Sequence record: SRR22947725_176
Length of the DNA stretch: 33,590 bases
Direction: 5' to 3' (one strand)
Position 1 is the first letter of the stretch. Every line of letters starts with the position of its first letter. Under the pieces are notes generated by a model. The model was not told the origin of the DNA. It made no database searches and saw only the letters and a program-made list of their open reading frames with translations. This document shows positions 322-33,590 of this stretch, in pieces. The position numbers and the translations under genes are program-made.

Positions 322-1491
322 ATGTCTTTTGTGTTTTCTGTTGCTGTATTCATTTTTGCTCTTTTGCCGTTGAATTTACAAGCTCAAGAATTAATAGATT
401 TGATTATTGAGGCCTTTAAAGAAACAGAAATTGCAAGAGCGAAAATATATTTGAGTTCAACTCCTGTTACTGTTACTGATGCACATTGTGAGCGCAGTGT
501 CGGAGGGTTACATGATTTTTATTCTGAAGGAGATTATTGGTGGCCAAACCCAGAGAATCCGGGAGGCGCTTATCAACAACGTGATGGGCAAACAAACCCA
601 AATAATTTCACGTTACATCGACATGCAATGATCAGGCTGAGTGAGATTACCGCTACATTAACCTCTGCTTGGTTGCTTACAAATGAAAATGTTTATGCAG
701 ATAAGGCATTGGAACATTTAAATGCATGGTTTGTGGATACTAAAACTAAAATGAATCCGAATATGCTCTATGCACAAGCAATTTCAGGAAAAGTTACAGG
801 TCGTAGCATCGGGTTGATAGATGCTTACCATTTTGTAGAAGTTACTAGATCTGTGGAAGTACTTTCTGATAAGGGAGGCATTTCACCTGAACAATCTGAT
901 AAAATTAAAGCCTGGTTTAGCGAATTTTTAACATGGATGACTACTCACGAATATGGAATTTTAGAAATGAATTCGAAGAATAATCATGGAACTAGTTGGG
1001 CAGCAACCGCAGCTTCAATGGCATTATTAACTGACAATGAAGAAATAAAGAAATTGTGCATAGATCGGTTTAAGAATATACTGCTTCCAAACCAAATGGC
1101 TACTGATGGCAGTTTTCCACTTGAATTAAAAAGAACCAAGCCATATGGATATTCTTTATTTAATATTGATGCATTTTTCAATGTAGCACAAATCTTATCT
1201 ACTCCAGAAGACAATTTATTTGAGTATGAAACAAAGGATGGAAAATCTTTAAAAAAGGGGCTAGAATATATATACCCATATATGGAAGATAAGACGATAT
1301 GGCCATTCGCTAAAGACGTTTACATTTGGAATGAATGGCCAGTTTGTCATCCATCTTTATTATTTGGTGCAGCAGCATATAATAATTCAAATTACCTCAA
1401 TGCTTACCTTGAATTACCTGCATATCCTATTCATTCCGAAGTTGTTAGGAATTTACCAGTGAGACATCCAATAATTTGGTTATTTGACTAA
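322..1491 (+). CDS. Secreted polysaccharide lyase of the Alginate_lyase (alpha/alpha-toroid) family, PL38-like (glucuronan/alginate lyase)
   Basis: 389 aa ORF. Motifs HDFYSEGDYWWPNP...YQQRDG.TNP, MNPNMLYAQ, NNHGT and FPLELKRTKPYGYSLFN are typical of this lyase group. Hydrophobic N-terminus ending NLQA|Q. Confidence 0.8.
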   Translation: MSFVFSVAVFIFALLPLNLQAQELIDLIIEAFKETEIARAKIYLSSTPVTVTDAHCERSVGGLHDFYSEGDYWWPNPENPGGAYQQRDGQTNPNNFTLHRHAMIRLSEITATLTSAWLLTNENVYADKALEHLNAWFVDTKTKMNPNMLYAQAISGKVTGRSIGLIDAYHFVEVTRSVEVLSDKGGISPEQSDKIKAWFSEFLTWMTTHEYGILEMNSKNNHGTSWAATAASMALLTDNEEIKKLCIDRFKNILLPNQMATDGSFPLELKRTKPYGYSLFNIDAFFNVAQILSTPEDNLFEYETKDGKSLKKGLEYIYPYMEDKTIWPFAKDVYIWNEWPVCHPSLLFGAAAYNNSNYLNAYLELPAYPIHSEVVRNLPVRHPIIWLFD

Positions 1492-1516
1492 TTTAAAGAT
1501 TTGTTTACAGGAGTGC

Positions 1517-2914
1517 TTAATCGATTTCTTTAAAGGGGTGGTCATGATTAGTGCCTTGTATTCGTTCAGCCACTTTTTCAGCAAGAAAAGCTATGGTTTC
1601 GGTATATTCAATATTATCAATTAAATTTAAGGTTTCGTTGGGATCTTTTTGGCGATCAAAAAATTCTTTGCCAACTTTTTCACCTGAACTCATTTTAATC
1701 CATTCTACATAATTGTATCTTGCTGTTTTGGCCGCATACCCCATTATGGTTTTACTGTAATCTTCTCTTTTAATAGGCCAGATGCTAAATACTACTCTTT
1801 GTTTTTGAGTATCAGGTTTGTTCAGTAACGTGACTATACTTTGCCCATCTAAATGATTAGGTTTTTGCATTCCATTGAGTTCTACAAGAGTAGGGTATAT
1901 GTCAAGTGCAGCCACAGGGGTTTTTGAAACACTATCTTGTTTTCCGCCTGGGACACTGAATATGAGCGGAATATTGGTGTCAAGATGCATATTAGTCCAT
2001 TTACACCATGAGTTATAGTCACCAAGTTTGTAGCCGTGATCACCCCATAATACTATAATTGTTTTGTCCCTAATGCCCAAGGTTTCTAGCTTATCGAGGA
2101 GTTTCCCTACTTGTGCATCGGCGTATGATACACAAGCATAGTATGCTCTACGAAGTTTCAAAGCCATATTGTCATCAATTTCATCATACAATTCTGGCAT
2201 TCTATAGTAGTTTTTAAGTTCCCCACCCGTCCTGATAGCTTTATTATATCCATTTCTAGGGCGTTCTTTTATGTCTGTTAGTTTGATAGTTGAAGTTGGA
2301 TACATATCCCAATATTTTTTTGGAGTAGTGAATGGAAGGTGTGGTTTAGATAAGCCAACCGACAAAAAAAATGGAGCGTCATCTTTGCTTAATTCTTCCA
2401 TTTTTTTCAGTGCATTCTGGGTATTCAAACCGTCTTTGTAAATTGTATCATTAACAGGTGCAAATTCGTAAGCGGGTCCCCTATTATATTTAGTATTTAG
2501 CGCAATTTTTTCAATAGCTTCTGGCGTCACATATCCTCTGCCTGTCCACGTTCCTTTAGGTTTCATTTCGTTGTTGCCAAACTGTTCTTTCGTGTCAATT
2601 TTATGGTGATATATTTTACCACATGACGCAATTTTATATCCATTTTGTTGAAAATACTTATTTAGTGTTAATGCGTCTGGCAAAACATCATTTACAGCTA
2701 GGCCTGTATAGATACCGTATTTTTCAGGTCTTATCCCTGTCATAATCGATGCTCTCGATGCCATGCAAATGGCTTGTTGAACATGTGCATTTTCAAATCT
2801 AACGCCTTGGGCAGCTAATCGGTCAATGTTTGGAGATTTTATGTGACTTGCACCATAACAATTTAGATCAGTACGGAGGTCATCAATTGAAATAAACAGA
2901 ATATTGTAAAGCAC
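1517..2914 (-). CDS. Type I (formylglycine-dependent) S1 sulfatase, iduronate-2-sulfatase/S1_7-like; catalytic part only, from a GTG
   Basis: NILFISIDDLR, active-site ICMASRASIMTG (CxAxR), GKIYH, KPHLPF, WGDHG and WCK motifs. Confidence 0.85.
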   Translation of the reverse strand: MLYNILFISIDDLRTDLNCYGASHIKSPNIDRLAAQGVRFENAHVQQAICMASRASIMTGIRPEKYGIYTGLAVNDVLPDALTLNKYFQQNGYKIASCGKIYHHKIDTKEQFGNNEMKPKGTWTGRGYVTPEAIEKIALNTKYNRGPAYEFAPVNDTIYKDGLNTQNALKKMEELSKDDAPFFLSVGLSKPHLPFTTPKKYWDMYPTSTIKLTDIKERPRNGYNKAIRTGGELKNYYRMPELYDEIDDNMALKLRRAYYACVSYADAQVGKLLDKLETLGIRDKTIIVLWGDHGYKLGDYNSWCKWTNMHLDTNIPLIFSVPGGKQDSVSKTPVAALDIYPTLVELNGMQKPNHLDGQSIVTLLNKPDTQKQRVVFSIWPIKREDYSKTIMGYAAKTARYNYVEWIKMSSGEKVGKEFFDRQKDPNETLNLIDNIEYTETIAFLAEKVAERIQGTNHDHPFKEID

Positions 2915-3007
2915 ATTTTTCTTGGTATTTGATGGGCTTATTTACCCCCGACAAACTACAACCGATGCTAAAAGTATAAAGCCGAGAAAAGATGTTTTAT
3001 AAAACAT
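1517..3007 (-). pseudogene. Full-length sulfatase gene interrupted by an in-frame TAA at codon 22 (nt 2942-2944)
   Basis: The ATG at 3007 is in frame, 93 nt upstream of 2914, and reads MFYKTSFLGFILLASVVVCRG*ISPSNTKKNVLYNILF. This is a signal peptide, a stop, then a linker into the catalytic domain. Confidence 0.6.
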
Positions 3008-3023
3008 ATTGTTTAATACTTTT

Positions 3024-3334: not shown

Positions 3335-6300
3335 ATGAATTATAAGATTAAATTAACTCTTTTAGTTTCATTGCTTGTATGCTTAAGCACATATGCACAG
3401 AATACTATGAGTATAAAAGGACAAGTGTCCTCCAGTGAAGACAATGAACCCATCCCGGGTGTTAATGTTGTGGTAGCCAATTCCAATAATGGTACGGTTA
3501 CAGATTTTGATGGAAATTTTGAAATCAGCGCTGCTGCAGGAGACGTATTACAATTTTCCTACGTAGGGTTTAAAACTCAACTTGTTGCTGTTGACAGTAA
3601 TACTACACTTAATGTAGCGATGGATTTAGATGACAACCTACTTGATGAAATTGTTGTCATTGGATATGGAACTCAGAAAAGAAAAAATCTGACTGGGGCT
3701 ATCTCCAAAGTTAAAAGCGAGAATCTCGATAAAATTGCTGTTTCTCGTATAGATGATGCCCTTGTGGGACAGATTTCTGGAGTTAATATCCAAGCTACAG
3801 AAGGTGAAGCAGGGTCTGATCCTACCATACGCGTTAGGGGAACAGGATCTATTACCAGTAGTTCATCGCCACTCATTGTTGTAGATGGGATTGTTGTTGA
3901 TAATGATTTTTTAGGTAACCTTGATATGAACGACATTGAATCCTTTGAAGTTCTGAAAGATGCCTCTTCGGCTGCCATTTTTGGTGCTCGAGGTGGTAAT
4001 GGTGTCATCCTTATTTCAACCAAAAATGGCAAAGAAGGAAGAACAAAATTCACCTACAACACATATACAGGCTTTAAAGAAGCTCTAAGAGGTGACAACT
4101 TATATGTTACCATGCAAGAATGGGCAGACAAAGAACTTGCAGCAACAGGTCAGCTTTCTGATAAAACCACCTATAAACTTGCGCTTCAAAATGATCGTGA
4201 TTGGCAAGATATTATGTTTGATGGTGGTATGATAGAAAGTCACTCCATTTCAGCTAGAGGAGGAAGTCAGCGTACTACATTTAGCACATCTTTAAACTAC
4301 TTAAGCGATGAAGGTGTTTTGCTTACAGATAACTTTAATCGTTACAGTCTTAGTTTGAAGGTGGACTCGAAAGTTGGCGATAAATTTAAAATTGGCGCCA
4401 ATATATCACCTTCTTATTCTGACAGAAGAAGATTTGATGGTTCTACGCACGATGTATTAAGACAACCACCATGGTTGCCGGTCTACCACAACGACCACAC
4501 CATCCAGTTTGTGGATAGAAATGCATATCCAGATGTTCAAGTAGGTGATTATGCTGTGCAAAGACACTTTGATAATTTTGATTTATATGGAGACGGAGGT
4601 GAAACAGATATTAGCACAACCAGTAATACCAATCCAGCTGCCAAAATTTTGGAACGTGATCGCAATGATTATAAATTTAAGCTATACGGAAATATCTATG
4701 CACAATATGAAATTGCTGATGGTTTAAAGTTTAAAACAACTTTAGGTGGAGATTACTCGCACACAAAAAGAGATAGATGGCAAGGGGTTAAAGCGAGTCG
4801 TAACGGAGTAGCTGCAACAAGACTTGACCTTTCAAACGACAAGAGACTCCATATTGTTTCGGATAATGTTTTCACTTATGATAAAACCATAGGAAAACAT
4901 GACATTAATGCAGTGGCTGGTTTTTCTGCTGAACAGTGGGACTATGAAATTGAGGCTGCTACAGGAATAGGTTATACTTCAGATTTGGTAAGAACACTTT
5001 CTGGCGCAACAACTATTGCTGAAGCCACATCTGAAGAATATCAGCAAAGGCTGCTTTCCTATTTTGGTCGTATCAATTATGCATATGACGGCAAGTATCT
5101 TGTGTCATTAAGCGCAAGAAGGGATGGGTATTCTGCTTTTGGACCAGACTCTAAATACGGATTTTTCCCAGCAGCTTCTGCTGGATGGACGCTTTCTAAC
5201 GAGGATTTCCTGCGTGAAAGTAAGACCATTAATTTTTTAAAGCTAAGAGTTAGTTATGGATTAACAGGGAACAATGCATTTGATATTGGTAATGGTGATT
5301 TCAGAAACCAAATTAATAGTTACCCTTATTTGTCTTTAATTGGAGCTTCGTCAGCGTCATTTAATAATTCTATTGTTAATGGATTTAACCCACTTAACAT
5401 TTCCAATTCAGGTTTGGGTTGGGAAAAATCAGTGGAGGTGAACCCAGGAATTGATTTTGGATTTTTTAACAATAGACTTACAGGTTCTATAGATGTGTAT
5501 AAAAGGACAAGTGAGGACCTCTTGTTAGACGTTCCGGTTTCGTATACTACAGGTTTCCCGAATGCTCTTGACAATAGGGGAAAGGTTGAAAATAGAGGTA
5601 TTGAAATAGAATTGAGAACTAAAAATGTCATTCGACCAAATTTCCAATGGAACAGTACGTTTATCGCTTCACGAAACGAAAACGAGCTTGTGGACTTTGC
5701 GGAATCTAATGGTCTAATAACAAACGTTGATACCAAGCGTGCTGCAGAGTGGATTAATTTAGTTGGAAATCCGATTTCATCATTTTACGGATGGGTAGTA
5801 GACTCTGAGATTCCTGCTGAATACATTAATGCACCATGGGAGCGTGTGCGTCAAACCAATAGAGACGTTTATGTGAAAGACCTTAATGGTGATGGTGTAA
5901 TTGACGATGATGATAAAACCATTCTTGGAAATCCTTACCCTGATTTGGTATGGAGCATTTCAAATGAGTTTAAGGTAGGCGGTTTTGAATTAAGCTTTAT
6001 TTTTCAAGGAAGTCATGGGGCTGAAGTACGAAATATTGGTGATCAGTATATGTTCCGCCACTTTGGATCTGCTTCAACTGCCTTATCAACTGCACCTAAT
6101 CAAGGCTTTATAAAACAAAAAATATTCACAGATTCAATTGTACAAAATGCTTCATATGTAGCATTACGAACGATTTCAATTGGTTATGATTTACCTGAAG
6201 ATTTACTTTCGGAACTCTTTATTACTAACGCTAGAATCTATTTAACAGGGCAAAACCTCATGTATATAACGGCTGATGATTACAACGGCTTAAATCCGGA

Positions 6301-6397
6301 GTCTATTTACAATACGAGCCCAATTAATTACGGTTACCAACGCGTTGGTTCTCCGATTAATCGAACATTCTCATTAGGTCTTAATCTAAATTTCTAA
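3335..6397 (+). CDS. susC: SusC/RagA-family TonB-dependent outer-membrane transporter
   Basis: 1020 aa. N-terminal extension (EPIPGVNV...GTVTDFDGNF), LDEIVVIGYG, plug motif DIESFEVLKDASSAAIFGARGGNGVILI, C-terminal GLNLNF. Followed by SusD. Confidence 0.97.
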   Translation: MNYKIKLTLLVSLLVCLSTYAQNTMSIKGQVSSSEDNEPIPGVNVVVANSNNGTVTDFDGNFEISAAAGDVLQFSYVGFKTQLVAVDSNTTLNVAMDLDDNLLDEIVVIGYGTQKRKNLTGAISKVKSENLDKIAVSRIDDALVGQISGVNIQATEGEAGSDPTIRVRGTGSITSSSSPLIVVDGIVVDNDFLGNLDMNDIESFEVLKDASSAAIFGARGGNGVILISTKNGKEGRTKFTYNTYTGFKEALRGDNLYVTMQEWADKELAATGQLSDKTTYKLALQNDRDWQDIMFDGGMIESHSISARGGSQRTTFSTSLNYLSDEGVLLTDNFNRYSLSLKVDSKVGDKFKIGANISPSYSDRRRFDGSTHDVLRQPPWLPVYHNDHTIQFVDRNAYPDVQVGDYAVQRHFDNFDLYGDGGETDISTTSNTNPAAKILERDRNDYKFKLYGNIYAQYEIADGLKFKTTLGGDYSHTKRDRWQGVKASRNGVAATRLDLSNDKRLHIVSDNVFTYDKTIGKHDINAVAGFSAEQWDYEIEAATGIGYTSDLVRTLSGATTIAEATSEEYQQRLLSYFGRINYAYDGKYLVSLSARRDGYSAFGPDSKYGFFPAASAGWTLSNEDFLRESKTINFLKLRVSYGLTGNNAFDIGNGDFRNQINSYPYLSLIGASSASFNNSIVNGFNPLNISNSGLGWEKSVEVNPGIDFGFFNNRLTGSIDVYKRTSEDLLLDVPVSYTTGFPNALDNRGKVENRGIEIELRTKNVIRPNFQWNSTFIASRNENELVDFAESNGLITNVDTKRAAEWINLVGNPISSFYGWVVDSEIPAEYINAPWERVRQTNRDVYVKDLNGDGVIDDDDKTILGNPYPDLVWSISNEFKVGGFELSFIFQGSHGAEVRNIGDQYMFRHFGSASTALSTAPNQGFIKQKIFTDSIVQNASYVALRTISIGYDLPEDLLSELFITNARIYLTGQNLMYITADDYNGLNPESIYNTSPINYGYQRVGSPINRTFSLGLNLNF

Positions 6398-6407: not shown

Positions 6408-7826
6408 ATGAAAAGCATTAGAATTATAATTTTTATTACGGTAATGGCTGTCTTTACTTCATGTGAAGACTATTTAGAACTAGCACCAACATCAGTAATA
6501 AGTGGCGGAAGTTTTTACGCCGATGAAGCACAGCTCATGCAAGGAGTCTACAATATGTATGATGGCCTTCAAGGAGCTAACGACACGAGCTCTAGGAGTA
6601 ATCACGCTACTCAAATTGAGTATTATGTAACTGAAATGCGTAGCGACAACACAAGATCAAAAAGCGGAGAGGGAGAAGCTGCCCAATTTGATAATCTTGC
6701 TGTTGAGTCAACTAATGGTTTAATTGCCGACCACTACAGGAGTTTTTATAATGTCATTTTTAGAGCCAATACGGTACTTCAAAATCTTGGTGTTGCTTCT
6801 GAGAGCAACAAATCAAAAATTGAAGGGGAAGCTAAATTTATTCGTGCCTATGTTTATTTTAACTTGGTAAGACTTTATGGCGCTATACCACTTCTTGACA
6901 ATGTTATTGGTGTAAGTGATGACGCTTCTTATATTAGGAGACCGGTGGCAGATGTATATGACTTAATAGTTAGTGATTTGAACAGCGCAGTAGCTGGATT
7001 AGATAATACTAATGGTAGGAACAGAGCTACAAAAGCTGCTGCTCAAGGATTACTTGCTAAAGTACACCTTACACTTGGTAATTATCTCGATGCACAACAG
7101 CTACTAGAGAGCGTTATGTCTGAAGGATTTGCTTTGGAGCCCAGCTTTAGTGATGTGTTTTTTAACGAAAGCAATTCGGAAGTTATTTTTGCTATAGGCT
7201 ATGCTTCAGGATTGGTGCAAGACAGTCAAAACTTTTCTGCTGAATTTTTAAACGGTGTTGGACGAACAGTGGGTGTAAATTACGTTACTGACGATGCAAA
7301 AGCTTTTATGGAAGCCAATGGTGGAGACAGAACTGTTGTTTCTATGCGCACTGATCCAATACAACCTACACAAACGCAAGTAACTAAGTTTTTACCTGAT
7401 GGTTTTGATGGCGGTTCAGATGGGAAAACATTTGATTTCGATGCACGACTTGCTGGGAATGATTGGATTGTGTTACGTTATGCCGACATCTTGTTGATGC
7501 ACGTTGAGGCCATTATGGGAAGCAGTAACGAAACCAATGCTACAGCGGCTTTAGCTTCATTTCAACAAGTGCGTGATAGAGCAGGACTAACAGACGCAGT
7601 AACTTCTATTACCAAAGACGATTTGTTAGCAGAACGTCGTGCAGAATTAGCATTTGAAAACCAAAGGTTGTATGACATAATGCGATTTGGAAAAGGTATA
7701 GATATACTTGGCACCTATGCAGTAGCAATTGGAGCAAATTTCACCTCTAATGATTTATTGCTTCCATTTCCACAAATAGAAATCGGACTTAGCAAAGGAT
7801 TATTAAAACAAAACCCAGGGTATTAA
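6408..7826 (+). CDS. susD: SusD/RagB-family glycan-binding lipoprotein
   Basis: Lipobox FTSC. Motifs GEAKFIRAYVYFNLVRLYG, LRYADILL, ERRAELAFENQR and C-terminal QNPGY. Confidence 0.96.
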   Translation: MKSIRIIIFITVMAVFTSCEDYLELAPTSVISGGSFYADEAQLMQGVYNMYDGLQGANDTSSRSNHATQIEYYVTEMRSDNTRSKSGEGEAAQFDNLAVESTNGLIADHYRSFYNVIFRANTVLQNLGVASESNKSKIEGEAKFIRAYVYFNLVRLYGAIPLLDNVIGVSDDASYIRRPVADVYDLIVSDLNSAVAGLDNTNGRNRATKAAAQGLLAKVHLTLGNYLDAQQLLESVMSEGFALEPSFSDVFFNESNSEVIFAIGYASGLVQDSQNFSAEFLNGVGRTVGVNYVTDDAKAFMEANGGDRTVVSMRTDPIQPTQTQVTKFLPDGFDGGSDGKTFDFDARLAGNDWIVLRYADILLMHVEAIMGSSNETNATAALASFQQVRDRAGLTDAVTSITKDDLLAERRAELAFENQRLYDIMRFGKGIDILGTYAVAIGANFTSNDLLLPFPQIEIGLSKGLLKQNPGY

Positions 7827-7846: not shown

Positions 7847-8827
7847 ATGAAAAATATATTTAATATTTCAATGGTTGCCTTACTAGTATTAGTTTCGGCA
7901 TGCGATGATTTCGACAAATACGAATTGCCTGAGGCAAATTCAATTCCAGATGCAACTCCACCTCAGGCTGTTTTCACAGCTATTCAAAGTGAGGAATTAG
8001 ATAACGACGGATGGAAAGACTATTATTTTTCCAATGGGTCTATCAGTGCTACTACCTATGCTTGGGACTTTGGAGATGGAAATACATCTTCAGATTATGA
8101 AGCAACAAATAGGTTTGGTGATGAGGGTACCTATACAGTCTCTTTGACTGCTTCTGACAACAATGGTCTTACAAATACATTAACACAGGATATATCCGTT
8201 GAGCAGCCGCCTGCACCACCCGTACCAGATCCTACTTTGATAAACACTGTTTTTGATAAGCTCGGTAAGTCATCTGGGTCTGACTGTACTTGTTCTGGTT
8301 GGATTAATAGAAGCCTCGGTACTCAGGGCGAATCTAGTTCAGCAAATGGTAGTGATGTAATGAAGTTTGACAATAACGAACCTGATCATATTTATCAAGA
8401 GTTTGAGGTTACGCCTAACGCAAATTATCAGATTGAAGTTGAGGTAGGATTCAGTACTAATGCTGGTAAATCAAACCCTGCAAGTCTCGAATTTAGAGTC
8501 CTTGCTGGGACAGGTTATGACAGTGGTTATACCCCGACGTATTACACTGAAACGACCGCATTCCCACAAGATGGATATGGGTACTCATCAGTTGCACAAA
8601 CAGAAGTTGAAGCAAATAATCTTATGACTAGAGTGCTTAATAACCCAGACGACACCAGCTATATTAAGTACATACTTAACTTCAATTCTGGTGCAAACAA
8701 CAGTATAGCATTATTTGCAAGAGGCATTGGCGGGCTTGCTACAGGACATTCAGACAATGAAAGATATGGATACTCTAGTGGAGATGAAGAAATTAGAATT
8801 GACAACTTAGTCATCACTGCTTTATAA
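7847..8827 (+). CDS. Surface glycan-binding lipoprotein with a PKD domain and a C-terminal CBM-like beta-sandwich
   Basis: Lipobox VSAC, PKD signature YAWDFGDG...GTYTVSLT, Pro-rich linker QPPAPPVPDP. Sits directly after susD. Confidence 0.8.
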   Translation: MKNIFNISMVALLVLVSACDDFDKYELPEANSIPDATPPQAVFTAIQSEELDNDGWKDYYFSNGSISATTYAWDFGDGNTSSDYEATNRFGDEGTYTVSLTASDNNGLTNTLTQDISVEQPPAPPVPDPTLINTVFDKLGKSSGSDCTCSGWINRSLGTQGESSSANGSDVMKFDNNEPDHIYQEFEVTPNANYQIEVEVGFSTNAGKSNPASLEFRVLAGTGYDSGYTPTYYTETTAFPQDGYGYSSVAQTEVEANNLMTRVLNNPDDTSYIKYILNFNSGANNSIALFARGIGGLATGHSDNERYGYSSGDEEIRIDNLVITAL

Positions 8828-22598: not shown

Positions 22599-23225
22599 TT
22601 AGATCGCGTATTTTTTTTGAAATTGACTAGGAGTAAGACCAAATTTTTCACTAAAACACATACTGAAATATTTTGGGTTTTTATATCCAACATGATAGCT
22701 TACTTCTGAAATAATCATTTTGCCTTTTTCAAGTAATTGTACAGCACGTCTCATGCGATAATGTTTTATTAAATCGTTTGGAGTAAAGTTTGTCCATGTT
22801 TTAACCTTTAAGAACAACAATGTACGACTAACACCTAGTTCATAACAAAATGCAGAAATATTAAAAAATTCGTTACTGATATTTTCCTCTATAATGAGAA
22901 GCGCTTTTTTAAATAGTTTTTCATCAAATGAGGGGATAGATACTTCATTTGGCTGAAAAAAATCTTGTGTGTTTATTTCTTTTATGAATCGCTGCTCGTT
23001 TTCCCTTTCAAGAAATTCAATTCTTGACTTTAGCCTAGCCACTTCTTGAAAAAGCGTTCGCACCTGTTCTTTAAGCGCTTCGTTTTTATAGGCAGGTTGA
23101 GCCATTAATGACTCTAAATTTTTTGCCCTAGTTTTAAGTTCATCTGCTAAATACATGTTTCCGCTATTATTTAATTCTTGTATGTTTTCTTTTATATCAG
23201 ACCTGACTCTTGTTTCAATCATCAT
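22599..23225 (-). CDS. AraC-family HTH transcriptional regulator with a coiled-coil N-terminus
   Basis: ELGVSRTLLFLKVK...RMRRAVQLL...ISEVSYHVGYKNPKYFSMCF.EKFGLTPS. The N-terminal ~80 aa are heptad-like. Confidence 0.88.
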   Translation of the reverse strand: MMIETRVRSDIKENIQELNNSGNMYLADELKTRAKNLESLMAQPAYKNEALKEQVRTLFQEVARLKSRIEFLERENEQRFIKEINTQDFFQPNEVSIPSFDEKLFKKALLIIEENISNEFFNISAFCYELGVSRTLLFLKVKTWTNFTPNDLIKHYRMRRAVQLLEKGKMIISEVSYHVGYKNPKYFSMCFSEKFGLTPSQFQKKYAI

Positions 23226-26071: not shown

Positions 26072-26078
26072 ATTTTAT

Positions 26079-26915
26079 ATGCAATCAAATAATATATACC
26101 TAGCTACCAGCCCAACAGAAGCGAAAAACTTTGATACAGATGAGTTAAGAAATCGCTTTTTAATAGGAACCATTTTCAAACCTGATCATGTTACGGCCTA
26201 TTACACCACTTACGACCGATACCTTGTAGGCGGCGCACAGCCTGTAACCAAACCTCTTGCCCTAGAGGTTATTGATGAGCTACGAGCGGATTATTTTTTG
26301 GAACGCAGAGAATTGGGCATTATCAATGTTGGCGAAACGGGTACTGTTCGCGTAGATGGTATTGTTTTTACACTTGAAAACCAGGAGGCCTTATATGTTG
26401 GTAGAGGCGCTAAAGATGTCGTTTTTGAAAACACCTCAGGCTCTTCCCCTTTGTTTTACTATAATTCAACCCCAGCACATAAAAGCTACCCAACCGAAAA
26501 AATTTCATCTGAACGCGCACAATATGTAGAGCTTGGAGACGATAAAAATGCTAATAAAAGACGCATAAAAAAACTCATTGTTCAAGAAATTATACCTACT
26601 TGCCAATTGCAGATGGGCCTTACCATGTTATATGAAGGAAATGTGTGGAATACCATGCCTGCACATACGCATCTAAGAAGAATGGAGGTTTATTTTTATT
26701 TTAATATTAATACAGACAATTCTATTTCTCATTTTATGGGTGAACCTCAAGAAACAAGACATATATTTATGCAAAACCATCAAGCGGTAATTTCGCCATC
26801 TTGGTCTATACACAGTGGATGTGGCACTTCAAACTATACTTTTATTTGGGGTATGGCAGGTGAGAACTTAGATTATGGAGATATGGATGGTGTAAAAATT
26901 AACGAACTACGTTAA
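26079..26915 (+). CDS. kduI: 4-deoxy-L-threo-5-hexosulose-uronate ketol-isomerase
   Basis: YFLERRELGIIN, CQLQMG, WNTMPAHTHLRRMEVYFYF, SPSWSIHSG and WGMAGEN motifs. Confidence 0.97.
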   Translation: MQSNNIYLATSPTEAKNFDTDELRNRFLIGTIFKPDHVTAYYTTYDRYLVGGAQPVTKPLALEVIDELRADYFLERRELGIINVGETGTVRVDGIVFTLENQEALYVGRGAKDVVFENTSGSSPLFYYNSTPAHKSYPTEKISSERAQYVELGDDKNANKRRIKKLIVQEIIPTCQLQMGLTMLYEGNVWNTMPAHTHLRRMEVYFYFNINTDNSISHFMGEPQETRHIFMQNHQAVISPSWSIHSGCGTSNYTFIWGMAGENLDYGDMDGVKINELR

Positions 26916-26918
26916 AAT

Positions 26919-27701
26919 ATGAATCCATTTGATCTGACAGGAAAAACAGCTTTTGTTTCTGGCGCAACCCACGGACTTGGCATGGCTATGGCTGCAGGAC
27001 TTGCTGAGGCAGGAGCCAAACTCATTATTTCAAGTACAAGCGCACATAAGTTAGAAGGTGCCTTGAATGAATACAAAATAATGGGTTTTGAGGTTTCTGG
27101 TTATGTACTGGATGTTACCAATGATGAACAGGTCAAAACAGTGACTGCTGAAATTCTTAAAAAGCAACGAGTCGATATTCTAGTCAATAATGCGGGTATT
27201 ATAAAAAGAACTCCGGCACTTGAAATGAGCCCTGAGGACTTTAGAGCCGTCACGGATGTTCACCTTACAGGTTCGTTTCATCTTGCACAACAGTTTGCCA
27301 TCCCTATGGTAGCGCGTAAGTCAGGAAAGATTATTAATATTTGCTCGATGATGAGCGAGTTGGGCCGTAACACAGTTAGTGCTTATGCGGCTGCTAAAGG
27401 TGGTTTGAAAATGCTTACAAGAAACTTAGCCACAGAGTGGGCCAAACACAATATACAAGTCAATGGCATTGGCCCTGGCTATTTTGAGACTTCTCAAACC
27501 GCTCCAATACGAGTAGATGGACACCCATTTAACGATTTTATCATCAACAGAACACCAGCTGGCCGTTGGGGTAAAACAGAGGACCTTAAAGGAACTGCTG
27601 TATTCCTCGCATCAAAAGCAAGTGATTTTGTGAATGGCCAAATTATTTACGTAGACGGCGGTATATTGGCAACAATTGGAAAACCAACTAATGAGCTATG
27701 A
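26919..27701 (+). CDS. kduD: SDR dehydrogenase, KduD/gluconate 5-dehydrogenase type (2-keto-3-deoxygluconate-forming)
   Basis: SGATHGLG, NNAGIIKR, ICSMMSELGR and YAAAKGG motifs. Directly after kduI. Confidence 0.8.
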   Translation: MNPFDLTGKTAFVSGATHGLGMAMAAGLAEAGAKLIISSTSAHKLEGALNEYKIMGFEVSGYVLDVTNDEQVKTVTAEILKKQRVDILVNNAGIIKRTPALEMSPEDFRAVTDVHLTGSFHLAQQFAIPMVARKSGKIINICSMMSELGRNTVSAYAAAKGGLKMLTRNLATEWAKHNIQVNGIGPGYFETSQTAPIRVDGHPFNDFIINRTPAGRWGKTEDLKGTAVFLASKASDFVNGQIIYVDGGILATIGKPTNEL

Positions 27702-29116
27702 TGAGAAAATCCAAATCGTTTATTGATGAAGGTTTTTTACTCGATAATCCCTTCGCACTTGAACTTTACGTAAACTACGCTGCCAAGCAACCTATCATTG
27801 ATTATCATTGTCATTTATCCCCTGCTCAAATAGCAAATGATTATCAGTTTAAAAATATTACAGAAATATGGATTGAGGGCGATCATTACAAGTGGCGTGC
27901 TATGCGGACCTTGGGCGTTGATGAGCGATACATAACGGGGAATGCATCGCCTAAAGAAAAATTTATTGCTTGGGCTTCTTGTGTTCCAAAGCTTATTCGT
28001 AACCCACTCTATCACTGGACACACCTCGAACTTAAAAGATACTTTGGCATTGATGTATTGCTCAGTGCTGATAACGCAGCAGCTATTTATGAGCAAACTA
28101 CTGCTTTACTTCATCAAACAGAATACAGTTGCTTAAATCTTATTAAAAAATTAGGCGTTGAAATAATATGTACGACAGATGACCCTACGGATAGTTTAGA
28201 ATACCATAAAGCATTTGATGCCAATGATTCACTTACGCTTTTACCTGCTTTTCGTCCAGACAAGGCCATAGAAATACAGCATGAGGACTTTACTGCCTAT
28301 TTAGCCAAATTAGCAATGGTTGTAGGACACAAGATAGATTCATTTAGCACACTTAAAAAAGCCTTGAATAACAGGATGGATTACTTTGCTGCTCATGGGT
28401 GTTCAATATCAGATCATGGTTTGGAACAAATTCGCTATACTGAGACTTCAGATGAAATGGCCGATGCTGTAATGCAAAAAAAAGCCCAAGGAAAGCTTTT
28501 GACCGTCAATGATCTTGACCAATATAAAACCGCTGTTTTACTGTTTTTAGCAAAGGGCTATCACAAGCACGGCTGGGTGCAACAATACCACCTTGGCGCA
28601 TTACGTAACAATAGCAGTCGCATGCTCAATAATTTGGGCCCTGATATGGGTTGTGACTCTATTGGTGATTTTCACCAAGCGCAAGGCCTCTCAAGGTTTT
28701 TAGATACACTTGACACCAATAATGAGTTGGCTAAAACCATTTTATACAATTTGAACCCGGCACAAAATGCACTTTTTGCAACCATGGCAGGAAATTTTAA
28801 CGATGGTAGCGCAAGCGGCAAGATTCAATATGGTGCAAGTTGGTGGTTTTTAGATCAATTAGATGGAATGCGCAAACAAATTAATTGCCTGTCAAACATG
28901 GGTGTTTTGAGCACATTTGTTGGAATGCTTACAGATTCACGAAGCTTTATGTCTTTTCCAAGACATGAGTACTTTAGAAGGTTGTTATGTAATATTATCG
29001 GAGAAGATGTAGAAAAGGGGTTGTTACCACGCGATTTAGATGCCATGGGAACCATAGTGTCCGACATATGTTATCACAATGCTAAATCCTATTTTAATTT
29101 TTATTCACACGAATGA
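27698..29116 (+). CDS. uxaC: Glucuronate (uronate) isomerase
   Basis: PIIDYHCHL, GDHYKWRAMR, NPLYHWTHLEL, CTTDDP and GMLTDSRSF.S.PRHEYFRR motifs. Confidence 0.97.
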   Translation: MMRKSKSFIDEGFLLDNPFALELYVNYAAKQPIIDYHCHLSPAQIANDYQFKNITEIWIEGDHYKWRAMRTLGVDERYITGNASPKEKFIAWASCVPKLIRNPLYHWTHLELKRYFGIDVLLSADNAAAIYEQTTALLHQTEYSCLNLIKKLGVEIICTTDDPTDSLEYHKAFDANDSLTLLPAFRPDKAIEIQHEDFTAYLAKLAMVVGHKIDSFSTLKKALNNRMDYFAAHGCSISDHGLEQIRYTETSDEMADAVMQKKAQGKLLTVNDLDQYKTAVLLFLAKGYHKHGWVQQYHLGALRNNSSRMLNNLGPDMGCDSIGDFHQAQGLSRFLDTLDTNNELAKTILYNLNPAQNALFATMAGNFNDGSASGKIQYGASWWFLDQLDGMRKQINCLSNMGVLSTFVGMLTDSRSFMSFPRHEYFRRLLCNIIGEDVEKGLLPRDLDAMGTIVSDICYHNAKSYFNFYSHE

Positions 29117-30078
29117 AAAAAACCTTATTATATATTTTGCTTCTCCAGTTTGTTGCTTGTCAACAGGACAATAGCAAGCGTATTATTCGCTTGGGCCATG
29201 CGCTTGATACCAACCACTCTGTCCACAAAGCCATGGAAAAAATGGGGGAAGAGCTTTATCGGATTTCTTCAGGGACTATGGAAATTAAAATATATCCAAA
29301 TCAACAGCTGGGTTCTGAGCGCGAATGCCTTGAATTATTACAAATAGGAAGCCTTGATATTACCAAAGTATCTACAGGCGTTCTGGAAAATTTCTCTCCC
29401 AACATGAAAGTGCTTGGGCTACCATATTTATTCCGTGACAAAGCACACACGTTTTCAGTTTTAGATGGCGCTATTGGTAAGGAGTTACTCAATGAAACAT
29501 TATCCTTCAGAATTAAGGGCTTGGCTTATTATGATGCTGGTAGTCGAAGTTTTTATACTAAGCGTAAACCAATTACATCCCCCTCAGATTTAAAGGGATT
29601 AAAAATTAGAGTCATGGAAAGTGTTACAGCCATGAAAATGGTTGAAAGCATGGGTGGTTCTCCTACGCCGATTTCATGGGGTGAACTGTATACTTCGCTG
29701 CAACAAGAAGTGGTGGATGGCGCAGAAAATAACCCACCAAGCTTTTTCCTTTCCAAGCAGTTTGAGGTGTGTAAACACTACACTCTTGACGAACATACAA
29801 CCTTGCCTGATGTTTTGGTAAGTGGTTCTTATTTTTGGGACGGCTTAAACGAAAACCAAAAAGAATGGCTTAATGAAGCAGTTGCAATTTCTGTTATTTA
29901 TCAACGTCAGTTGTGGGCAGAATCCGAAGCGTATTCACTCAGTGAACTTAAAAAATCGGGTGTAGAAATTGTTTATCCTGACAAGAAAATGTTTGAGAAC
30001 ATGGTTAAGCCTGTTTATGATTATTACCGCACAAATGGTGAAATGGATGTGTTGATCAATCAAATAAAAAATCAATAG
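29113..30078 (+). CDS. dctP: TRAP transporter substrate-binding protein (DctP family), predicted lipoprotein
   Basis: YPNQQLGSE, DLKGLKIRV, ELYTSLQQEVVDGAENN. Lipobox-like FVAC. Confidence 0.93.
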   Translation: MKKTLLYILLLQFVACQQDNSKRIIRLGHALDTNHSVHKAMEKMGEELYRISSGTMEIKIYPNQQLGSERECLELLQIGSLDITKVSTGVLENFSPNMKVLGLPYLFRDKAHTFSVLDGAIGKELLNETLSFRIKGLAYYDAGSRSFYTKRKPITSPSDLKGLKIRVMESVTAMKMVESMGGSPTPISWGELYTSLQQEVVDGAENNPPSFFLSKQFEVCKHYTLDEHTTLPDVLVSGSYFWDGLNENQKEWLNEAVAISVIYQRQLWAESEAYSLSELKKSGVEIVYPDKKMFENMVKPVYDYYRTNGEMDVLINQIKNQ

Positions 30079-30080
30079 GG

Positions 30081-30548
30081 ATGAAAGGCATGCAAGATAA
30101 ATTAAATCGCATTTTGGAGATTGTTTTGGTAGCCTTGCTGGGCATCATGGTGCTTAATGTAAGTTGGCAAGTTTTTTCAAGATATGTTTTGGCAAATCCA
30201 AGCTCCTTTACCGACGAATTGGCACGCTATCTAATGATATGGTTGGGTGTTATGGGCACTGCCTATGTTTCTGGTAAACGACTTCATGTTGCAATTGACA
30301 TTCTTCCCAGTCAATTGAGTTCGTCTCGTCAAAAAGCTATGCAAAGAGTCATATTTTCAATCATCATTTTGGCGACTGTTTTGATTTTTATCATTGGCGG
30401 CTCAAGACTCGTGTATTTAAGTTATGTGCTTGGTCAAAAATCTGCCGCATTACAAATTCCACTATACCTTGTTTATATGTGTGTACCACTAAGTGGCGCT
30501 TGCATTGTTTTTTACAAGTTTTGTGATCTAACTTCAAACAAATCATAA
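30081..30548 (+). CDS. dctQ: TRAP transporter small permease
   Basis: 155 aa with 4 hydrophobic segments. QVFSRYV...TDELARYLMIW and HVAID. Confidence 0.92.
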   Translation: MKGMQDKLNRILEIVLVALLGIMVLNVSWQVFSRYVLANPSSFTDELARYLMIWLGVMGTAYVSGKRLHVAIDILPSQLSSSRQKAMQRVIFSIIILATVLIFIIGGSRLVYLSYVLGQKSAALQIPLYLVYMCVPLSGACIVFYKFCDLTSNKS

Positions 30549-31843
30549 TGGAAGCTTTTTCAATAGCCATACTGTTAGTTAGTTTTTTGTTGTTGCTGTC
30601 AATAGGGACACCTGTTGCTTGGAGTATTACAATATCATCGCTTTTCACCCTTTTAGTGAGTGTTCCTTTTTTACCGGCATTGACTACTATCTCTCAACGC
30701 ATGGCAACTGGGATAGATAGTTTTGCCTTGTTGGCTATCCCGTTTTTTATATTGTCAGGAGAGTTGATGAATAAGGGAGGTGTAGCCCACAGACTGGTTG
30801 CATTTGCCAAATCATTGGTTGGCTTTTTACCGGGTGGTTTAGCGCTCATTAATGTTATATCCGCAATGTTAATGGGTTCAGTGGCAGGTTCTGCCATGGC
30901 ATCTGCTTCTGCAATGGGAAGTATTTTGGGACCTGAGATGGAAAAGGAAGGATACTCTAAAGGTTTTGGGGTGGCAATAAATATCACTTCTGCTACTACT
31001 GGATTGGTTATTCCACCTAGTAATATTTTAATCGTGTATTCATTGGCTAGCGGAGGTGCTTCCATTGCGGCTTTGTTTTTGGCTGGATATATTCCTGGCA
31101 TACTAACAGGTTTATTTTTAATGGCTGTTGCTATGATATGGGCAAAGAAGAAAAACTTTAAAACGGGAAAACGCGCACCACTCAAAACAGTTTTCAACTC
31201 TTTTGTTCGCGCCTTTCCAAGTTTGATGCTGCTTTTTGTGGTAATTGGTGGTATTGTTTCGGGAGTTTTTACAGCTACAGAAGCATCTGCAATTGCCGTT
31301 ATTTACACTCTTGTTTTGGGATTTGTTTATAAAGAAATCACGGTTAAAACGCTCCCTAGTATTTTGCTAAAATCTTCTACCACAACAGCTATTGTAATGT
31401 TCCTTATAGGTGCATCTATGAGCATGTCCTGGGTATTGTCTTATGAGAATATTCCCGAAATGATAAGCAGTGGTATTTTATCGCTTAGCGATAACAAAAT
31501 TGTGATACTACTACTAATTAATTTCACCTTGTTGTTTGTGGGTATTTTCATGGACATGACACCAGCAGTATTGATATTCACTCCTATTTTTCTTCCCATA
31601 GTAACCCAGTTGGGAATTGATCCTGTTCATTTTGGTATCATCATGATTTTAAATTTATGTATTGGCTTATGTACGCCGCCAGTTGGAAGTGTTCTTTTTG
31701 TTGGTGTTGGTGTTGCTAATACGTCTATACAAAAAGTTATCAAGCCGCTTATACCTTTATTTTTAGCTATGATTGTTGCCCTTTTGTTAGTTACTTATAT
31801 TCCCGCACTTTCACTCTGGCTTCCATCAATATTTGGTCTGTAA
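30548..31843 (+). CDS. dctM: TRAP transporter large permease
   Basis: SFALLAIPFFIL.GELM, IPPS, GVFTATEA, DPVHFGII and TPPVG motifs. Confidence 0.95.
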   Translation: MEAFSIAILLVSFLLLLSIGTPVAWSITISSLFTLLVSVPFLPALTTISQRMATGIDSFALLAIPFFILSGELMNKGGVAHRLVAFAKSLVGFLPGGLALINVISAMLMGSVAGSAMASASAMGSILGPEMEKEGYSKGFGVAINITSATTGLVIPPSNILIVYSLASGGASIAALFLAGYIPGILTGLFLMAVAMIWAKKKNFKTGKRAPLKTVFNSFVRAFPSLMLLFVVIGGIVSGVFTATEASAIAVIYTLVLGFVYKEITVKTLPSILLKSSTTTAIVMFLIGASMSMSWVLSYENIPEMISSGILSLSDNKIVILLLINFTLLFVGIFMDMTPAVLIFTPIFLPIVTQLGIDPVHFGIIMILNLCIGLCTPPVGSVLFVGVGVANTSIQKVIKPLIPLFLAMIVALLLVTYIPALSLWLPSIFGL

Positions 31844-31862: not shown

Positions 31863-32975
31863 ATGAGAAAAATCTTTCATAATGTCAGTTTAGCCTATCG
31901 TATTTCAAAAAGAAGAACGTTTGCTGTTATAATGCTTTCATTGTTTGCATCGAATCAAACTTGGTCGCAGGAAGTTATTGAAGCAAATGGCCCTGGGAAT
32001 ACCTATGAAGAACTCACTGCTTTTTTGGCGCCTGGGTATAACCCTATTGAAGTACCAGATTGCAATCACGCTAGTTTTGGAAATCATATAGACGAAGTAT
32101 ATGACAGCAGCCTTGGAGGCAATACGTTCCGTTTTTTTATTCATGTAACTCCAGATGATGATCGCTGTATTTCAACAATTAATGACCGGCAACGTAATGA
32201 AATTAAAACCTATGACAAATCGCCTGCAAATTTAAAAGGAACGCAGGGTGAGAAAGTTATATATAAATGGGCATTTAAACTTGCTGATGGATTTCAATCT
32301 TCACCCAACTTTACGCACATTCACCAGTTAAAATCGGTCGGGGGAGACTACTCAAGTATGCCCATGTATACGTTGACTACACGCAAGGGAACTCCAGATA
32401 AGTTGCAATTACGGTATGCTGAAACCACAAATCAAATAACCCTCAAAGAAACACAGTTAAGCTCTATGATTGGTGTTTGGGTTGAGGTTGTTGAGCAAAT
32501 TGAATACACCAGCTCCGGTTACTATTCCATTAGGTTGACCAATAAGTTAAATGGTCAAGAGTTGTTTTATTATGACAATACAGCGCTTAACGAACCAAAG
32601 ATAAACTGGCGGCCAGGGGGTAGTTTTGTGCGTCCCAAATGGGGTATATATCGCAGCTTAATTAATGCACAAGACCTTCGGGATGAGGAAGTACTGTTTT
32701 CTTATTTTAGCATTGAAGAAGTGAGTTCCTTGTCAACAGCTTCAGTAGAAAACATTAATCCGCTTGTATATCCTAACCCAACAACAGGAATATTACACAT
32801 TTTAGAGACAGACGCTACGCACACGCAAATTTTTGCCATGGACGGTCAGCTGCTTATGCAGTCAAATAGCGCGCAAATTGACCTAAGTGATTTACCGCCT
32901 TCCCTTTATTTTTTAAAAGTATTTGATAACAACAACAACTTGCTCTTAAAGCAGAAGGTGCTAAAGTCGAATTAA
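31863..32975 (+). CDS. T9SS-secreted beta-jelly-roll polysaccharide lyase (Polysacc_lyase/heparin lyase I-like), paralog B
   Basis: DRQRNEIK, HIHQLK, RPKWGIYRS. Signal peptide ending WS|Q. C-terminal VYPNPT...IDLSDLPPSLYFLKV is a T9SS sorting domain. Confidence 0.68.
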   Translation: MRKIFHNVSLAYRISKRRTFAVIMLSLFASNQTWSQEVIEANGPGNTYEELTAFLAPGYNPIEVPDCNHASFGNHIDEVYDSSLGGNTFRFFIHVTPDDDRCISTINDRQRNEIKTYDKSPANLKGTQGEKVIYKWAFKLADGFQSSPNFTHIHQLKSVGGDYSSMPMYTLTTRKGTPDKLQLRYAETTNQITLKETQLSSMIGVWVEVVEQIEYTSSGYYSIRLTNKLNGQELFYYDNTALNEPKINWRPGGSFVRPKWGIYRSLINAQDLRDEEVLFSYFSIEEVSSLSTASVENINPLVYPNPTTGILHILETDATHTQIFAMDGQLLMQSNSAQIDLSDLPPSLYFLKVFDNNNNLLLKQKVLKSN

Positions 32976-32987
32976 ATATAATTTGTT

Positions 32988-33020
32988 TATATTTGGAAAA
33001 CCAAACTGGTTTACCAATTA
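32988..33020 (+). promoter_or_regulatory. PL7 promoter -7 box overlapped by a tandem palindromic operator (second copy of the susC element)
   Basis: TATATTTGGAAAACCAAACTGGTTTACCAATTA, 30/33 identical to 3218-3250 and 14 nt before the ATG at 33035. Confidence 0.75.
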
Positions 33021-33034
33021 AACAAATCTTTAAA

Positions 33035-33590
33035 ATGACAACAACAAAAACAATCCTCCGTGTATTTATACTCATTTTTGTTTTGCACTTACAGGGGTGT
33101 ACTGAAAATAGTAAGCCAGCGCTCATAGCAAGTAAGGTCATCCCTTTTTTCCAGCATTGGAATTTAATTTTAGGAGACGGCTCAAATGCGGGTGTAGCAA
33201 TTGATTATGAAAACAAGGACTTTTTTTACGCCACAAATGATGGTGAGGAAGAGTGGGTTGTTTTCAAAACGCCCAACGCTGGGAACACACACGGTACTTC
33301 AAACAATTCAAGAACTGAGCTAGCGCAGCTAAAAAAGTGGTCGCCGCTAACCGATGCAAAATTGGAAGCGACACTAAAAGTAATGAATATAGCAAGTACA
33401 GGCGATGCGAGGGTAGCAGCAAGTTACTCAGTAGTAGTCGGTCAGATTCACAGTGCAGATGGGCACGAAAATGAACCCCTTAAGATCTTCTATAAAAAAT
33501 TTCCTGGGCATACAAAAGGATCTGTTTTTTGGAACTATGAAATCAATACAGCGGGTGAAGACAATTCAAAAAGATGGGATTATTCCTATC
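33035..33590 (+). CDS. PL7 alginate lyase lipoprotein, 5' part (cut by the window end; not in the ORF track)
   Basis: Manual translation: MTTTKTILRVFILIFVLHLQGC...SNNSRTELAQ...VVGQIHSADGHENEPLKIFYKKFPGHTKGSVFWNYEIN... It has lipobox LQGC and the PL7 RxEL and QIH motifs, and stays open to the end of the window. Confidence 0.9.
   Translation, partial: MTTTKTILRVFILIFVLHLQGCTENSKPALIASKVIPFFQHWNLILGDGSNAGVAIDYENKDFFYATNDGEEEWVVFKTPNAGNTHGTSNNSRTELAQLKKWSPLTDAKLEATLKVMNIASTGDARVAASYSVVVGQIHSADGHENEPLKIFYKKFPGHTKGSVFWNYEINTAGEDNSKRWDYSY

Follow-up and report, generated by a model that had tools for sequence, protein, structure and literature searches.

A marine flavobacterial locus combining an alginate system with a candidate cassette for polyglucuronic acid breakdown

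Genes of the locus and its alginate half

The stretch of DNA analysed here, henceforth the window, comprises 33,590 nucleotides of sequence record SRR22947725_176 and carries 25 main open reading frames (ORFs; Table 1). Alginate lyases of polysaccharide lyase (PL) families 6 and 7 are interleaved in it with a lyase of family PL38, glycoside hydrolases (GH) of families GH88 and GH2, a tripartite ATP-independent periplasmic (TRAP) transporter and genes of uronate catabolism. With its susC/susD pair, carbohydrate-active enzymes and regulator, it belongs to the class of polysaccharide utilization loci (PULs) of Bacteroidota, and its named relatives are Flavobacteriaceae or Bacteroidetes records. 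All genes named in a preliminary description of positions 322–33590, made from the letters alone, were found again with Pfam and NCBIfam, to which have to be added a sulfatase, a DUF4861 protein, a type IX secretion system (T9SS) protein, a 208-aa AraC stub and a 553-aa beta-helix protein. One name had to be softened: a short-chain dehydrogenase/reductase (SDR) does follow kduI, but since it passed the gluconate 5-dehydrogenase model PRK07097 (393 against a cut-off of 369) and failed the KduD model TIGR01832 (244 against 339), we call it kduD-like. This clustering is not due to chance, because the same genes are adjacent or fused in many other Bacteroidota.

The stretch is present in 17 RNA-labelled runs (0.27–0.48 of the sampled words), all from seawater or marine samples. 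Four of these were compared as contigs, which say nothing of transcription or its level and from which we draw no inference: three cover both the cassette discussed below and the alginate genes, and one (X1) lacks cover of approximately 19600–28900. Flanking genes were read in the nearest genome, G001, which is not that of the window itself; it is 94–97% identical to the window, 1.6 Mb in size and 87% complete, and each absence quoted from it below is to be read with that figure in mind.

Judged from its sequences, the alginate half of the locus is ordinary. The PL6 enzyme best matches BcAlyPL6 (410 bits) and AlyGC (403), against 124 for chondroitinase B, and the PL7 gene that is cut by the window end continues in relatives, including G001, as a two-domain (double) PL7. 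Past it, G001 carries a cupin, a second PL7, a GntR regulator, a major facilitator superfamily (MFS) transporter, an SDR, a PfkB kinase and a 2-keto-3-deoxy-6-phosphogluconate (KDPG) aldolase; from their position and from pathway knowledge, the cupin, SDR, kinase and aldolase would be KdgF, the reductase of 4-deoxy-L-erythro-5-hexoseulose uronate (DEH), KdgK and KdgA. The genes expected of an alginate PUL are thus at hand, at the level of sequence, the lyases within the window and the downstream enzymes nearby in G001. SusC, SusD and the PKD protein are 69, 68 and 56% identical to those of the alginate locus of genome G271, where they stand beside KdgF-PL17-PL7-PL6, and the window SusC and SusD are only 31–35% and 26–30% identical to the SusC and SusD of cassette loci. 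Compared with flavobacterial alginate PULs of the Zobellia AlyA5 and Gramella type, as far as the consulted portion of PMC6298971 describes them, the locus shares PL6, PL7, SusC/D/PKD and, further on, the KdgF cupin, GntR, MFS, SDR, KdgK and KdgA. It differs from them by its sulfatases, which those PULs lack, and by the interleaving of a glucuronic acid (GlcA) cassette. It may differ further in its oligoalginate lyases: a search of G001, 87% complete, for PL12-, PL15- or PL17-type domains, PF07940 (the PL17/PL15-type oligoalginate lyase domain) included, found none. In two close relatives (L014:10001-13026 and L018:3615-6460) the TRAP genes and the jelly-roll gene JR2 are followed by two kinase- and aldolase-sized ORFs, without PL7, cupin, GntR, MFS or SDR, a gene order from which the alginate operon appears as a removable block.

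The GH88–GH2 cassette and its link to a glucuronan lyase

The GH2 enzyme was the handle by which the other half of the locus was followed through the phylum. Its best structural matches are 6D7J, deposited as a beta-glucuronidase (611 bits), and 6D1P (606), the next one scoring 345; it keeps the WSLGNE, TEYGGS and NQKG motifs of the 6D7J glucuronidase, and N-x-K-G is present in 27/27 full-length copies selected by script. The idea that it might be a mannuronidase acting on alginate found no support, the motifs being those of 6D7J. The GH2 was found in 23 of 401 genomes, and the counts that follow bear on the 22 loci besides G001, of 11–80 kb each, searched by BLAST against single references. 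As the genomes that bear the cassette are kin, and hence not independent, no statistic is attached to these counts.

GH88 accompanies GH2 in 20 of the 22 loci, and the two are fused in six (a GH88-PL38 fusion was seen once); such fusions imply that GH88 leaves a beta-GlcA exposed. The window-type PL38 is present in 12 loci, the beta-helix gene in 7, DUF4861 in 8, uxuA in 7 and kduI in 5; put differently, 11 loci have PL38 only, 6 the beta-helix gene only, one has both and 4 have neither. Esterases (6), sulfatases (1), PL8 (1) and GH29 (1) are less common. Alginate markers, spread over several families, comprise PL17 or KdgF in five loci and PL6 alone in three more: the joining of the cassette to alginate genes is recurrent, and not unique to the organism of the window. 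The cassette is nevertheless independent of alginate genes, since seven genomes of genus g5 possess the beta-helix gene, a hybrid two-component regulator (HTCS), GH88, GH2 and uxuA without any alginate marker over 40 kb. The usual order of this beta-helix type is beta-helix, HTCS, SusC, SusD, GH88, GH2. To avoid the circularity of starting from GH2, a search with PL38 only was run separately: it gave matches in 22 of 386 genomes, 15 of them in the clade closest to the window protein, and among the 14 of these besides G001 the PL38 gene lies next to this GH2 in 11.

Beside this GH2, each of the seven g5 cassettes has another one, of the BuGUS-1 type. The glucuronidase PUL of Bacteroides uniformis likewise combines GH2 enzymes of the 6D1P clade and of the 6D1N/6D6W (BuGUS-1) clade, the latter shared with the g5 cassettes, with GH88, a lyase and uxuAB; described by Pellock in 2018, it reportedly has no assigned glucuronan substrate. 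For one clade of gut beta-glucuronidases, the present locus thereby suggests glucuronan as the natural substrate.

The window PL38 belongs to its family by PF05426 and by its NNH/Tyr motif (N220-N221-H222 and Y277, invariant in eight aligned PL38s), which we take to be catalytic; its best match among solved structures is 3NFV (203 bits). The member that matters most here is BlCUL1, a Bacteroides PL38 with an activity of 31.1 U/mg on cellouronate (beta-1,4-glucuronan), of 3.7 on alginate and of none on hyaluronate or chondroitin sulfate (PMC12423752). Its end product is an unsaturated di-glucuronate, growth of the strain on cellouronate is like that on glucose, and no enzyme is known in Bacteroidota for the step that follows, the removal of this product; that work characterises the enzyme alone, without describing its locus (PMC12423752). 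Used as a query, the forward primer of BlCUL1 retrieved 21 metagenome loci, in 16 of which both primers matched without mismatch. GH2 and a second PL38, of the window type, lie directly upstream of the BlCUL1-like gene in 10 of the 21, and the full order HTCS-GH88-GH2-PL38-BlCUL1-SusC-SusD is displayed in six; one locus (L177) is a chance primer match, another (L182) is taken up below, and the remaining ones are short. Between the window and this type of locus identity amounts to 50% for GH88, 41% for GH2 and 50% for the second PL38. GH88 and the beta-glucuronidase are thus syntenic with a proven type of glucuronan lyase, a linkage that is the best evidence for glucuronan, if an indirect one.

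The window has in common with the BlCUL1 locus of the Bacteroides luhongzhouii / B. ovatus group (enzyme in PMC12423752) GH88, GH2, the PL38 orthologue and, at the matching position, an HTCS, of which it lacks the sensor part, as it lacks the BlCUL1 orthologue and the cassette SusC/D. It has in addition the beta-helix protein, jelly-roll lyase candidates, TRAP transporter, catabolic genes, sulfatase and alginate module. SusC of the BlCUL1-type locus is read as a single 1035-aa ORF in L176, but as a pair of ORFs that overlap in L187:11167-14273 and also in L174, L181, L188, L189 and L194.

Substrate of the cassette

We hold with moderate confidence that the window is a merged polyuronate locus of a streamlined marine member of the Flavobacteriaceae, in which an ordinary alginate system has probably been joined to a cassette whose target is a polymer of successive beta-linked GlcA residues, in the simplest case beta-1,4-glucuronan. 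That an alginate module and a glucuronate-polymer module are combined here had already been proposed in the preliminary description, and this largely stands, given the conserved GH88-GH2-PL38 block on one side and the ordinary alginate genes on the other. Its choice of beta-1,4-glucuronan as the likeliest target also keeps its place, the block being conserved, its GH88 often fused to GH2, and the whole adjoining a BlCUL1 orthologue. Gene content, families, conserved linkage, fusions and linkage to the BlCUL1 orthologue are what was observed; the substrate of each window enzyme is what we infer from them. For the non-alginate half, synteny and orthology speak most for glucuronan or a GlcA-block polymer as the target.

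In this pathway the lyases (PL38, the beta-helix protein, perhaps JR1 and JR2) would cut the chain into unsaturated oligoglucuronates, from which GH88 would take off the unsaturated end, releasing 5-keto-4-deoxyuronate (DKI), and GH2 the newly exposed saturated GlcA. The TRAP transporter would import the acids, and KduI/KduD together with UxaC/UxuB/UxuA, all encoded in the window, would convert DKI and GlcA to 2-keto-3-deoxygluconate (KDG), which would enter the KdgK/KdgA step common to alginate. The KduI/KduD and UxaC/UxuB/UxuA steps are those of established uronate catabolism, and the sharing of KDG catabolism by both halves may explain why they were joined. Uptake would be ensured by the alginate-type SusC/D or by a transporter encoded elsewhere.

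Two features of the preliminary description found no support. It saw a complete system, but the sole SusC/D pair is of the alginate type, and the window lacks the SusC/D and the sensor proper to the cassette: its HTCS is cut to the DNA-binding end, and SusC/D are absent from their usual cassette position. The remnant, the AraC stub, shares 62% identity across 128 aa with the C-terminal end of the 1349-aa HTCS that occupies this position in genome G836, and its length is 186–208 aa in five close relatives. The description also saw an acetylated polymer. Esterases (SASA, AXE1 or BD-FAE) occur in 6/22 cassette loci, five of which are alginate-linked, and in none of the BlCUL1-type loci shown: the esterase is no co-inherited core gene of the cassette, and acetylation is left without support.

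Several observations weigh against the glucuronan assignment. The window PL38 is only 32% identical to the BlCUL1 orthologue and lies in a different clade; on its sequence it is the orthologue of BlCUL1's neighbour rather than of BlCUL1, so that the window lyase is not itself orthologous to a proven glucuronan lyase. In the tree, a clade of 19 rows (SH-aLRT 99) unites it with that second PL38. The BlCUL1 orthologue stands outside this clade and forms a pair with the PL38 of G430, found beside GH2 and GH88; the clade of the window PL38 reappears in a careful-method tree made without the rows of the BlCUL1-type locus. The proteins matched by the primers bear the label B. ovatus, and WP_143257364.1 did not appear among them, so we speak of an orthologue of BlCUL1 and not of that protein itself; in L182 the BlCUL1-like gene stands behind an unrelated ORF. 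PL38 is moreover polyspecific, with alginate, glucuronan and hyaluronan/chondroitin sulfate (HA/CS) as substrates in the consulted part of PMC13027841, and no GH2 or GH88 lies within 10 kb of 3/14 close-clade PL38s. To this must be added that jelly-roll homologues sit mostly in alginate loci, that the beta-helix family weakly resembles the hyaluronan lyase family BT3328 and that its gene stands in G876 among alginate genes without GH88/GH2, that several sulfatases lie beside the locus in this lineage (18 sulfatase matches in G001), that absences from G001 come from an incomplete genome, and that glucuronan is said to be rare in nature (PMC12423752). The 'alginate lyase' label of 3NFV is, by contrast, weak evidence for alginate, as this protein is approximately 82% identical to the BlCUL1 orthologue over the first 103 aligned residues, read by eye. 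An attempt to equate the second PL38 clade with the alginate-lyase clade of 8BDQ failed, since the protein tested also had 3NFV as its best match, and the PL38 clades are therefore left without labels of alginate specificity.

Among other readings, there is a small but real chance that the cassette is directed at a heteropolymer with GlcA blocks that occurs together with alginate in the walls or exudates of algae, for instance a sulfated fuco- or manno-glucuronan, of which sulfatases and esterase would unmask the GlcA backbone, pure glucuronan being a laboratory substrate only. Alginate markers in eight of the 22 loci would fit this, as would the sulfatase of the window and the four further ones of G001, three of them upstream of the locus and the fourth within the uxuA-DUF4861 operon; the portion of PMC6298971 consulted reports xylofucoglucuronans and glucuronomannans from brown algae and diatoms, and a Niabella PUL combines alginate lyases with unrelated activities according to the part seen of bioRxiv 10.64898/2026.05.19.726164. 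Sulfatase and GH29 each occur, however, in 1/22 cassette loci, fucosidase, mannosidase and xylosidase are absent from the window, and the common KdgK/KdgA step would account for co-location without a common polymer. That the whole is an extended alginate PUL is improbable. PL38, JR1/JR2 and the beta-helix protein would then be alginate lyases of unassigned families, and the GH88, GH2, Uxu and Kdu enzymes passengers that scavenge uronates, a view with which the alginate-type SusC/D, the alginate surroundings of JR homologues and of the beta-helix gene in G876 and G1301, and the side activity of BlCUL1 on alginate (PMC12423752) agree; new alginate lyase families do keep turning up in such PULs (bioRxiv 10.64898/2026.05.19.726164, in the part consulted). 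It leaves aside the stand-alone PULs with GH88, GH2, beta-helix gene and their own HTCS in the seven g5 genomes and in G122, none with an alginate marker near. GH88-GH2 fusions and KduI, in addition, make no sense for the alginate monomer on established pathway knowledge.

Degradation of a glycosaminoglycan (GAG)-like polymer (hyaluronan, unsulfated chondroitin or heparosan), for which a lyase and GH88 would suffice without GH20, seems very improbable. RiPL38 is active on HA/CS (PMC13027841, as far as consulted), GH88 is a standard GAG enzyme (PMC12269599, likewise), a weak match to the BT3328 family of hyaluronan lyases is common to all of 50 aligned beta-helix members, the jelly-roll fold ties heparinase I with PL20 and the sulfatase is iduronate-2-sulfatase-like. 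After GH88 has acted on such a polymer, however, it is a hexosamine that is exposed, and a fused or adjacent glucuronidase would need an intervening hexosaminidase: the lack of GH20, which alone does not exclude GAGs, counts here because GH88 and glucuronidase are paired or fused. PL8 occurs in 1/22 loci, BlCUL1 is inactive on hyaluronate and chondroitin sulfate (PMC12423752), and the PL6 is of the alginate type. A fragment of an ulvan PUL, suggested by 6HHM as the best structure for the sulfatase (presumably an ulvan S1_7 enzyme) and by the ulvan lyase NLR48 at rank 3 of the jelly-roll fold search, is hardly credible at all. In the window itself, 0/25 proteins match rhamnosidase, hexosaminidase, PL1, PL8 or UxaA families. 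The preliminary description had named GH78, GH106, GH20 and PL8 just outside as signs of an ordinary ulvan or GAG PUL; searches of G001, 87% complete, for these and for UxaA, with positive controls each time, found none, which makes ulvan, GAG and pectin readings unlikely, and a Pfam scan of 68 of the 134 unlabelled ORFs neighbouring cassettes gave 0 GH20, GH78 or GH106.

Candidate lyases and remaining genes

Two enzyme families of the locus, both without assignment, are candidates for new polysaccharide lyases. The beta-helix protein has 1915 homologues at E <= 0.001, and among the best 120, at 58–99% identity, none is named as a characterised enzyme. Homologues with a named source come from Winogradskyella, Algibacter, Formosa, Polaribacter and Flavobacterium. 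Its model (pLDDT 88) is a parallel beta-helix with a best Z of 25 at <=14% identity, and sequence and structure comparison with the PDB gave no close solved relative. It is no PL29/BT3328 member, with 72 bits against the cut-off of 1100 of NF058554; it shares with that family the fold and the weak match, and has 553 aa as against approximately 840. PL31-type lyases are no closer: the alginate lyase 6KFN, which we take to be a PL31, reaches a Z of 22.8 at 11% identity, tied with unrelated beta-helices. It has no homology with the 514-aa gene of the BlCUL1-type locus. When loci are picked by the beta-helix gene, GH88 and this GH2 are adjacent in 14/15 genomes, G876 being the exception. In the seven g5 loci and in G122 it is the sole candidate depolymerase, except for a jelly-roll gene in G336, and the PL38 search had no match in the 15 g5 genomes of its sample, which likely includes g5 cassette carriers; on these grounds the beta-helix protein would take the place of PL38 in other cassettes. 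Among 401 class genomes searched by profile, the family was retrieved only in 4 genomes of family f1, and yet a 41% copy exists in G1301. A distant beta-helix relative of 620–650 aa (last row of Table 1) adjoins PL38-GH2 in anaerobe-type loci; the two that were scanned had no Pfam match.

JR1 and JR2 are 51% identical to each other. The JR2 model (pLDDT 92) finds the PL20 glucuronan lyase 2ZZJ as Foldseek rank 1, at 16% identity, and structural comparison ties heparinase I (Z 18.0) with 2ZZJ (17.6). Q121-x-K123 and K225-W-G-x-Y229 of JR2 are invariant in 54 sequences, motifs that we assume, from PL7 and PL28, to be those of a lyase. JR2 had no match among PDB sequences and none by phmmer to TrGL (E <= 1), which keeps it out of PL20; PL20 TrGL and PL13 heparinase I (PF14099) are its closest folds, but at 12–18% identity, and unlike them it has a T9SS tail and homologues mostly in alginate loci. 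The preliminary description had placed both jelly-roll proteins on the glucuronan side. This found no support: among the 25 loci with a homologue, alginate markers without any cassette gene within 10 kb were seen in 13, cassette genes in 7, and neither kind in 5. The jelly-roll or the beta-helix family may belong to PL_New1 or PL_New2, new families of alginate lyases (Niaso_1999, Niaso_2009) in the part consulted of bioRxiv 10.64898/2026.05.19.726164. An Atlas look-up of the homologues P0013 and P0172 gave unnamed clusters only. In L110:11801-15166 a 1121-aa T9SS protein, beside tandem PL38s, GH2 and GH88, joins an N-terminal jelly-roll domain to approximately 700 residues without family.

Glucuronan lyases are known from many organisms (PMC12423752). 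A literature search, with partial coverage of subscription papers, found no description of the present PUL, which most likely represents a gene set for polyglucuronic acid breakdown that is widespread in Bacteroidota and apparently undescribed. GH88, then GH2, are candidates for the step after the lyase, and the locus is a marker set for spotting glucuronan users in genomes. A bolder proposal, possible but on balance doubtful, is that GH88, beta-glucuronidase and one of two interchangeable depolymerases form a phylum-wide core of glucuronan PULs, repeatedly joined to alginate PULs, the beta-helix protein being a new family of glucuronan lyases that replaces PL38 and the PF14099 jelly-rolls a second new lyase family. 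If this were true, a 1.6-Mb seawater flavobacterium that keeps all these genes would point to a glucuronan-like polymer as a real and overlooked marine carbon pool.

Table 1. Features of the window, with distant beta-helix relatives from other loci
Feature	Position	Strand	Support
PL38-like lyase, GH2/GH88-associated clade; candidate glucuronan (oligo)lyase	322..1491	+	PF05426 E 2e-78
Sulfatase, iduronate-2-sulfatase-like	1517..2914	-	PF00884
SusC, alginate-locus type	3335..6397	+	TIGR04056 over cut-off
SusD, alginate-locus type	6408..7826	+	PF07980/PF14322
PKD-domain lipoprotein	7847..8827	+	PF18911
SASA-family O-acetylesterase (putative)	8893..10812	+	PF03629 E 4e-20
Jelly-roll lyase candidate JR1, T9SS tail	10809..11897	-	PF14099 E 3e-6, under cut-off
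DUF4861 / BT3233-family protein	11894..13072	-	PF16153 + NF058564 over cut-off
uxuA mannonate dehydratase	13135..14322	-	TIGR00695 over cut-off
uxuB D-mannonate oxidoreductase	14334..15248	-	PRK08277 over cut-off
Two-domain PL6 alginate lyase, AlyGC/BcAlyPL6 type	15419..17800	+	PDB sequence match
T9SS-secreted protein, N-terminal domain without family	17870..18823	-	PF18962 only
GH2 beta-glucuronidase, 6D7J/6D1P clade	18936..21356	-	sequence match + motifs
GH88 unsaturated glucuronyl hydrolase	21356..22540	-	3WIW 293 bits
AraC stub, C-terminal remnant of cassette HTCS	22599..23225	-	
553-aa parallel beta-helix protein, candidate depolymerase	23232..24893	-	model pLDDT 88
LacI-family regulator	24981..26012	+	PF00356, PF13377
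kduI	26079..26915	+	PRK00924 over cut-off
kduD-like SDR	26919..27701	+	PRK07097 over, TIGR01832 under cut-off
uxaC uronate isomerase	27698..29116	+	PRK02925 over cut-off
TRAP transporter dctP-dctQ-dctM	29113..31843	+	TIGR00787, PF04290, TIGR00786
Jelly-roll lyase candidate JR2, T9SS tail	31863..32975	+	PF14099
AlyA5-type PL7 alginate lyase, start only (window end)	32993..33590	+	4BE3 221 bits/152 aa
620-650-aa beta-helix relative	L114:13622-15547, L120:4927-6798, L128:3734-5623, L129:5478-7424, L113:3058-4959		

The sulfatase of the window scores 335 bits with 6HHM, its best structure, and 193 with iduronate 2-sulfatase (IDS), and a sulfated substrate may exist for this lineage. Upstream of the locus, G001 has a metallophosphoesterase and the three sulfatases already counted, and housekeeping genes follow its alginate operon. 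Its sulfatase between uxuA and DUF4861 is 560 aa long (L011:345-2027) and has no counterpart in the window (13073-13134), which implies a strain-level gain or loss within the operon. The T9SS protein has relatives in the alginate loci L022, L023, L025, L034 and L036; contigs of two RNA runs have, inside its gene, 444 other bases in place of 447 within 18132-18580, a replacement that suggests a swappable domain.

Two further associations of the cassette deserve mention. In L062:12304-19116 and in L053, L064 and L065, all from g5, it adjoins GH16 and GH64 beta-1,3-glucanase genes (called by Pfam on L062, the other three having ORFs of the same size), which may reflect a fungal-wall source of glucuronan, or mere synteny. 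In G645 (L124:14683-17865) a GH29 fucosidase is fused to GH88 and adjoins PL38 and GH2, hinting at a fucosylated glucuronan as the target in that genome.

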